The notes beneath the pieces were generated by a model. The model was not told the DNA's origin and searched no databases. It saw nothing but the letters and a program-made list of their open reading frames with translations. From the NCBI RefSeq assembly GCF_003334255.1, contig NZ_QOWU01000133.1: a stretch of 2,469 nucleotides of DNA. One strand, written 5' to 3'. This DNA comes from Escherichia coli (lineage in GTDB: Bacteria; Pseudomonadota; Gammaproteobacteria; Enterobacterales; Enterobacteriaceae). The position numbers and the translations under genes were made by a program. Positions 2,170 to 2,469 of the stretch are shown here, one piece after another (position 1 is the stretch's first letter; each line of letters starts with the position of its first letter).

Positions 2170-2469
2170 TTATCTGAGGCATTGCTCACGAATGTATAGC
2201 TGTGCCCCTTCCAGCTGCTTCTGCATTGTCATCAACCGTTCTCTGAGGATGAAATAATCCCGTTCAGCGGCGTCTGCCAGTCTGGGGCCGGTTGCATTAT
2301 CCACGCCGGAGGTGGTGGGGGCTTCACGCACGGAGCCTGGACAGGTGGCGTTGATCCGCAGGCGCTTACGACCAGCGGCAACGTCAGCGCGAAGAGTTTC
2401 ATTTTCAGCTCTCGCATCGGCTAATTCCCTCGAGTATTTTGCATCGAGCGCAGCAACATCGCGCTGGCG
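2170..2469 (-). CDS. Rz: Rz-like i-spanin, C-terminal 99 codons plus stop; partial, 5' end lies beyond window end
   Basis: Minus-strand translation from 2469 reads RQRDVAALDAKYSRELADARAENETLRADVAAGRKRLRINATCPGSVREAPTTSGVDNATGPRLADAAERDYFILRERLMTMQKQLEGAQLYIREQCLR then TAA (plus TTA at 2170..2172). Colinear with recalled lambda Rz C-terminus (...MRQRDVAALDAKYTKELADAKAENDALRDDVAAGRRRLHIKAVCQSVREATTASGVDNAASPRLADTAERDYFTLRERLITMQKQLEGTQKYINEQCR). Not in the ORF track because its start is outside the window. Confidence 0.88.
   Translation of the reverse strand, partial: RQRDVAALDAKYSRELADARAENETLRADVAAGRKRLRINATCPGSVREAPTTSGVDNATGPRLADAAERDYFILRERLMTMQKQLEGAQLYIREQCLR
2232..2417 (-). CDS. Rz1: Rz1-like o-spanin (outer-membrane lipoprotein), 61 aa, nested within Rz in a different frame
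   Basis: ORF-track protein MRELKMKLFALTLPLVVSACGSTPPVQAPCVKPPPPPAWIMQPAPDWQTPLNGIISSSENG matches recalled lambda Rz1 (MLKLKMMLCVMMLPLVVVGCTSKQSVSQCVKPPPPPAWIMQPPPDWQTPLNGIISPSERG). Signal peptide with lipobox VSAC, proline-rich mature region, entirely embedded in the Rz reading frame region. Confidence 0.85.
   Translation of the reverse strand: MRELKMKLFALTLPLVVSACGSTPPVQAPCVKPPPPPAWIMQPAPDWQTPLNGIISSSENG

Follow-up and report, generated by a model that had tools for sequence, protein, structure and literature searches.

A nested Rz/Rz1 gene pair of the lambda spanin family near the cos region of an Escherichia coli lambdoid prophage

The minus strand at the right end of the window, by which we mean the whole 2,469-nt stretch of E. 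coli DNA analysed here, almost certainly encodes a lambda-family embedded two-component spanin, the distal unit of the lysis cassette in a lambdoid E. coli prophage. Our analysis establishes the homology of both reading frames, the lipoprotein signal, the nesting, the conservation of two frames and the genomic context. The pair is not novel. It is a textbook embedded spanin that is already known, and the sequence-only reading of this DNA, which had called the pair canonical, was right to treat it as an ordinary spanin of the lambda type.

The Rz frame

At 2170-2469 (minus strand) a stop-free frame of 99 codons was found (RQRDVAALDAKYSRELADARAENETLRADVAAGRKRLRINATCPGSVREAPTTSGVDNATGPRLADAAERDYFILRERLMTMQKQLEGAQLYIREQCLR), ending in YIREQCLR before a TGA stop at 2170-2172. 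The frame continues to the right edge of the window, which truncates the gene, and it represents the final 99 codons of Rz, the i-spanin, together with its stop. In a Pfam scan these 99 residues hit PF03245 (Bacteriophage Rz lysis protein; Phage_lysis) with an E-value of 8.5e-41, covering model positions 29-125 of 126. They also match PHROG 13 ('Rz-like spanin') with an E-value of 8.4e-48. The complete gene could be read from the chromosome of E. coli JE86-ST05 (NZ_AP022815.1; locus L003), which carries a prophage 100% identical to the window (0 mismatches in 2469 nt). In this copy Rz comprises 152 aa and 459 nt (L003 4001-4459), corresponding to 2170-2628 in window numbering.

Residues 1-19 of the JE86-ST05 copy, which lie outside the window, read MLSAFIVILLVACGALWMA and have a mean Kyte-Doolittle value of 2.46. 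They are helical in the AlphaFold2 model and would form a single N-terminal transmembrane anchor, giving Rz a type II topology. The model, which was built on an 11-sequence alignment and is of moderate confidence (mean pLDDT 66), consists of a helix at residues 2-93, a disordered low-confidence coil at 94-116 and a second helix at 117-151. This predicted layout matches the plan of anchor, CC1, linker (100-115) and CC2 described for the lambda protein (PMC5295617). A PDB sequence search with the Rz profile found no solved-structure homologue; a match to ATP synthase subunit b (E 0.004) was rejected as a spurious coiled-coil hit. The Pfam scan of Rz gave the Rz lysis family only and no peptidase domain. 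Two cysteines, Cys96 and Cys150, are present in columns that are invariant in the Rz alignment, and they correspond to C99 and C152 of lambda Rz.

A further profile, phrog_2934 (63 aa, labelled 'unknown function'), matches residues 36-98 of the Rz fragment (window 2170-2331, minus strand; E 4.6e-37). This suggests that phrog_2934 is made up of Rz genes called too short, of which only the C-terminus remains, as with the 53-aa GTG ORF in this window. In some relatives (L005, L047 and L074) Rz is 161-167 aa long and ends in RTQCTKLAFYYPEDI, an extension of about 11 residues beyond the conserved C-terminal cysteine. The extension is noteworthy because the chain length of the lambda Rz C-terminus has been reported to be strict (PMC5295617).

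Rz1 and its lipoprotein signal

Within the Rz gene, an ATG-started ORF of 61 codons is present at 2232-2417 (minus strand), beginning MRELKMKLFALTLPLVVSACGSTPPVQAPCVKPPPPPAW and reading MRELKMKLFALTLPLVVSACGSTPPVQAPCVKPPPPPAWIMQPAPDWQTPLNGIISSSENG up to its stop. By its family matches and its homology to the lambda protein it encodes Rz1, the o-spanin, as a 61-aa outer-membrane lipoprotein precursor. The product matches Pfam PF06085 (Lipoprotein Rz1 precursor; E 1.2e-21) and PHROG 3198 ('Rz-like spanin'; E 6.9e-31), and with the two Rz matches this bears out the family assignment that the sequence-only reading had made for both frames. A hit of the Rz1 product to Pfam LysC (PF23793) reached only an E-value of 0.2. 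The NCBIfam scan of the Rz and Rz1 products returned no family, which reflects the coverage of that library and is not evidence against the Rz/Rz1 identity.

The Rz1 ATG lies 211 nt into Rz (211 = 1 mod 3), which places it in the +1 frame, and the ORF covers nt 212-397 of the 459 nt of Rz. It is thus wholly embedded in another frame of Rz, as had been claimed. The coordinates, strand, VSAC lipobox and PPPPP stretch given in the earlier reading are likewise all present. A Shine-Dalgarno-like GAGGGA at 2426-2431 (minus strand), situated 8 nt upstream of the Rz1 ATG and inside the Rz coding sequence, would serve as the ribosome-binding site of Rz1; a further in-frame ATG is present at 2402.

The claim of a lipoprotein signal was confirmed with the PROSITE PS51257 pattern and its positional rules, which pick out ALTLPLVVSAC with Cys20, preceded by R2, K5 and K7 in the n-region. 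The lipobox V17-S18-A19-C20 (2358-2369, minus strand) aligns with VVGC of lambda Rz1, and Cys20 is predicted to be the lipid-modified first residue of a 42-aa mature protein. Mature Rz1 begins with C-G-S (Gly21, Ser22) and has no Asp at position +2. Asp at +2 is the Lol-avoidance or retention rule for lipoprotein sorting, and since Rz1 does not have it, sorting to the outer membrane is expected.

Eleven of the 42 mature residues are prolines. They include the penta-proline P33-P37 of the proline-rich region (2307-2321, minus strand; codons CCC CCA CCA CCT CCG), which is encoded opposite the inter-helix linker of Rz. A second cysteine at position 30 corresponds to C29 of lambda Rz1. In lambda, the Rz and Rz1 cysteines (C99 and C152; C29) form homotypic intermolecular disulfides, and a role of the penta-proline stretch of Rz1 has been described (PMC5295617).

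Both features vary among the relatives. The third position of the penta-proline (Rz1 residue 35) differs among loci L004-L083, giving PPAPP and PPSPP versus PPPPP here; in lambda Rz1 the third proline is the one position reported to tolerate alanine (PMC5295617). In two relative loci Cys30 is replaced by Ser, and the disulfide cysteine is lost.

Genomic context of the spanin genes

All recognisable genes of the window are on the minus strand. Besides the JE86-ST05 prophage, the window is 99.1% identical to Escherichia phage PhiR5_1 (PV340545.1; locus L001). The segment was found in 2,056 of 5,426 complete E. coli genomes; the number of copies per carrier has a median of 2 and a maximum of 12.

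On the downstream side of Rz, the reverse complement of the lambda 12-nt cohesive end GGGCGGCGACCT is matched exactly at 1791-1802 (minus strand) and identifies cosN, the flanks of which align with the right end of lambda. A heptamer GGGTCCT at 1826-1832 (minus strand) is also an exact match aligned with the lambda right end, and we take it to be lambda cosQ. The distance from the Rz stop to cosN is 367 nt. Beyond cosN follow Nu1, the terminase small subunit (1066-1614, minus strand), a 182-aa ORF annotated as such in both JE86-ST05 and PhiR5_1, and the N-terminal part of the terminase large subunit A (1-1094, minus strand; L003 997-2925 in the JE86-ST05 annotation), which is cut by the left edge of the window.

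The packaging module is mosaic. Its terminase A portion (1-1010) has about 85% DNA identity to gene 2 of phage 21 and to many lambdoid phages. For the Nu1/cosB stretch (approximately 1010-1700), megablast-level matches were found only in the PhiR5/PhiR12 group. The stretch 1714-2469 is about 91% identical to Stx-converting phages (Stx1a).

Extending the sequence rightward in the JE86-ST05 chromosome recovered not only the N-terminal membrane anchor of Rz but also, as the sequence-only reading had anticipated, the upstream lysis genes. In order from Rz, these are two small ORFs (L003 4471-4799; PHROG 4906, 43 aa, and PHROG 1115, 60 aa), a lysozyme (L003 4956-5489), a YdfR-family pseudogene and a class II holin (L003 6449-6664), with lysozyme and holin annotated on the same strand as Rz. 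The endolysin is therefore present upstream but not adjacent, being separated from Rz by the two small ORFs in JE86-ST05. In PhiR5_1 about 1.4 kb lies between endolysin and Rz, holding a 231-aa ORF and three small ORFs (L001 5737-6777). Since differing ORFs are inserted at this place, the lysis cassette carries variable cargo.

With holin and lysozyme upstream and cos and terminase downstream, Rz/Rz1 is the last unit of the lysis cassette, in agreement with what had been proposed. The window is thus a piece of a lambdoid prophage lying on the minus strand, with the end of the lysis cassette, cos, Nu1 and terminase A. The related claim that the late operon lies immediately upstream of cos holds with a qualification: cos is real, but the 367-nt spacer, in which no gene can be recognised, lies in between.

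No terminator was detected in 1600-2469, and the two promoter-like sites in the same region are not above the shuffled expectation. The lack of a terminator and the chance level of promoters fit read-through late transcription across cos. An Rfam scan of the whole window with E-values up to 1 returned nothing.

Four ORFs located in the Rz-cos spacer and antisense to Rz, at 1927-2052 (minus strand), 1839-1961, 1945-2073 and 2051-2257 (all plus strand), had no PHROG match and were treated as non-genes; no ORF of the 367-nt spacer gave a credible family match. A 68-aa GTG ORF at 1769-1975 (minus strand) was considered as a second spanin, having a weak match to phrog_6954 ('Rz-like spanin'; E 9.5e-5 over 22 residues). 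It was rejected, as it crosses cosN and has neither a lipobox nor a membrane anchor; its PHROG is probably a set of spurious ORFs whose label misleads.

Repeats in 1600-2180 were limited to short two-copy matches without clear meaning, besides a near-palindrome at 1837-1857 (AAATGATAAT / ATTATCAGTT). The reverse complement of this element, TGATAATCATTATCA, is base-for-base the same in the lambda right end, just upstream of cosQ. It resembles part of the Fur-box consensus GATAATGATAATCATTATC and may act in packaging (cos) or bind a host factor.

Constraint on the nested frame

As a null model, we generated 20,000 synonymous recodings of Rz that followed local codon usage. In 47% of them an ATG-started ORF of 61 aa or more was open in an alternative frame, whereas an alternative-frame ORF with a lipoprotein signal arose in only 2.2%. 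This null is conservative because two of the three Rz1 codon positions are retained. The length and openness of the nested frame alone are not beyond chance, and as ORF length is uninformative under recoding, we dropped the length argument.

The comparison across relatives covered 83 loci, comprising 80 IMG/VR loci that encode a relative, lambda, PhiR5_1 and JE86-ST05. A nested +1 ORF with a lipobox is kept in all 83, which together encode 23 distinct Rz1 proteins. When 37 distinct full-length Rz genes were aligned by codon, the nucleotide diversity at Rz third positions was 0.078 inside the overlap versus 0.223 outside, roughly threefold lower (Mann-Whitney p 4.5e-6, a value that overstates independence because the sequences are related and mosaic). 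The diversity at Rz first positions showed no difference between the overlap and the rest of the gene. Third positions of Rz are second positions of Rz1, and the lower diversity is therefore the signature expected of constraint by a second frame. The signal beyond chance lies in the family HMM matches, the retention of the nested lipobox ORF in every locus examined and the reduced wobble diversity, and both frames appear to be under purifying selection.

Alternative explanations

It could be argued that only Rz is real and that the 2232-2417 frame is an incidental by-product of its sequence which gives no protein. RefSeq and GenBank annotate only Rz here, and nearly half (47%) of the synonymous recodings contain an alternative-frame ATG ORF at least as long as the 61 aa of Rz1. 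Yet the frame has strong Pfam Rz1 and PHROG matches, a full lipoprotein signal accompanies such an ORF in just 2.2% of recodings, none of the 83 loci examined has lost the nested ORF, and wobble sites of Rz are about threefold less diverse inside the overlap. In addition, experiments have established that lambda Rz1, to which the product is 69% identical, is a lysis protein (PMC5295617), and the absence of an o-spanin annotation is a documented artefact that affected 196 of 528 systems (PMC6139136). We consider an incidental frame extremely improbable. The same can hardly be put more mildly for the idea that Rz is an endopeptidase cutting the links between peptidoglycan and outer membrane, and not a protein that bridges or fuses membranes. 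The product name 'endopeptidase Rz' in PV340545.1 speaks for it, but the Pfam scan is without a peptidase domain and gives the Rz lysis family only, and the predicted structure has two long helices and a disordered linker but no globular catalytic fold. Lambda genetics and biochemistry favour a periplasm-spanning complex and fusion (PMC5295617, PMC6139136), and an enzymatic role of Rz has in our view next to no chance of being correct.

A different possibility is that the genes are correctly identified but sit in a defective or cryptic prophage that no longer uses Rz/Rz1 for lysis. Many lambdoid prophages are defective, the window is identical to a chromosomal prophage, the copy number of the segment in carriers has a median of 2 and reaches 12, and a YdfR-family pseudogene lies inside the lysis cassette. 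Against this, the JE86-ST05 locus retains intact copies of Rz, Rz1, lysozyme, holin, Nu1, terminase A, portal and cos, and PhiR5_1, at 99.1% identity over the window, has been deposited as a complete phage genome with E. coli C as its host. We therefore regard decay of the system as unlikely and favour an intact embedded spanin of the lambda family.

Annotation and proposed mechanism

Public annotations of this segment do not include the nested Rz1. In PV340545.1 (L001 5232-5417) Rz1 is unannotated and only 'endopeptidase Rz', an outdated name, is given; in NZ_AP022815.1 (L003 4063-4248) it is also unannotated, the only entry being 'lysis protein'. Omission by gene calling is known for overlapping genes (PMC6139136), and failures of this kind have already been reported, the o-spanin not having been identified in 196 of 528 systems (PMC6139136). 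Beyond correct annotation the significance is small, although the orientation and identity of the window are now fixed. We would give even chances to the view that the point here is one of annotation and not of a new system. On this view an o-spanin lineage occurs in about 2,000 of 5,426 genomes, is unannotated for Rz1 in both records inspected and has no NCBIfam model, while its natural variants (PPAPP/PPSPP, Cys30Ser and the extended Rz) may provide a ready-made mutational series that parallels lambda genetics.

In lambda, Rz is attached to the inner membrane and Rz1 to the outer one, and the two form a periplasm-spanning complex for which a fusion mechanism is proposed (PMC5295617, PMC6139136). 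By homology, we infer expression, localisation, complex formation and a fusion mechanism for the pair described here. Rz would sit in the inner membrane in type II topology, held by its N-terminal anchor and exposing two long helices and a flexible linker to the periplasm. Translation of Rz1 would begin at a start codon of its own within the Rz gene, in the +1 frame. The product would be exported, lipid-modified at Cys20 and freed of its signal peptide, and would then be sorted to the outer membrane, into its inner leaflet. The C-termini of Rz and Rz1 may then bind across the periplasm. Once holin and endolysin have removed the peptidoglycan, the Rz/Rz1 complex would act next and disrupt the outer membrane, most likely by fusion with the inner membrane, so that lysis is completed.

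Comparison with known spanins

Lambda Rz/Rz1 (lambdap76/lambdap91) is the prototype of the embedded two-component spanin and has the same gene plan as the pair found here. In the lambda record Rz (45966-46427) and Rz1 (46186-46368) are nested alike, and in both cases the whole of Rz1 is contained in Rz, in the +1 frame, with its start about 211-220 nt into Rz. Aligned from M1, the Rz1 of the window is 69% identical to that of lambda, and the Rz of PhiR5_1 (155 aa, near-identical to that of the window) is 67% identical to lambda Rz. A lipobox with Cys20 is found in both Rz1 proteins, the blocks KPPPPPAWIMQP and DWQTPLNGIIS are identical, and the Rz proteins share the order of transmembrane domain, helix, linker and helix. 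At the protein level, the lipobox is VSAC here and VVGC in lambda, mature Rz1 has 42 aa with 11 prolines here versus 40 aa with 10 prolines in lambda (PMC5295617, PMC6139136), Rz ends in QCLR here and in QCR in lambda, and the membrane-anchor sequence is divergent. The surroundings also differ. Unlike in lambda, Rz is not directly downstream of the endolysin, and the roughly 2-kb bor/p78/p79 region of lambda is absent, cos following 367 nt after Rz.

PhiR5_1 and Stx-converting lambdoid phages have the same order of Rz, cos, Nu1 and A as the window. PhiR5_1 differs from the window at 25 positions, which are clustered in the region of the Rz linker and the Rz1 prolines; its Rz1 has PPAPP in place of PPPPP, and its Rz (155 aa) has a different N-terminus. 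Other gene architectures are found in unrelated families, namely LysB/LysC of P2 (overlapped), pseT.3/pseT.2 of T4 (separated) and gp11 of T1 (unimolecular). The P2, T4 and T1 spanins share the same logic of function and topology, with an inner-membrane anchor and an outer-membrane lipoprotein (PMC6139136). Embedded systems, the group to which the pair described here belongs, numbered 182 among the 677 phage genomes surveyed (PMC6139136).
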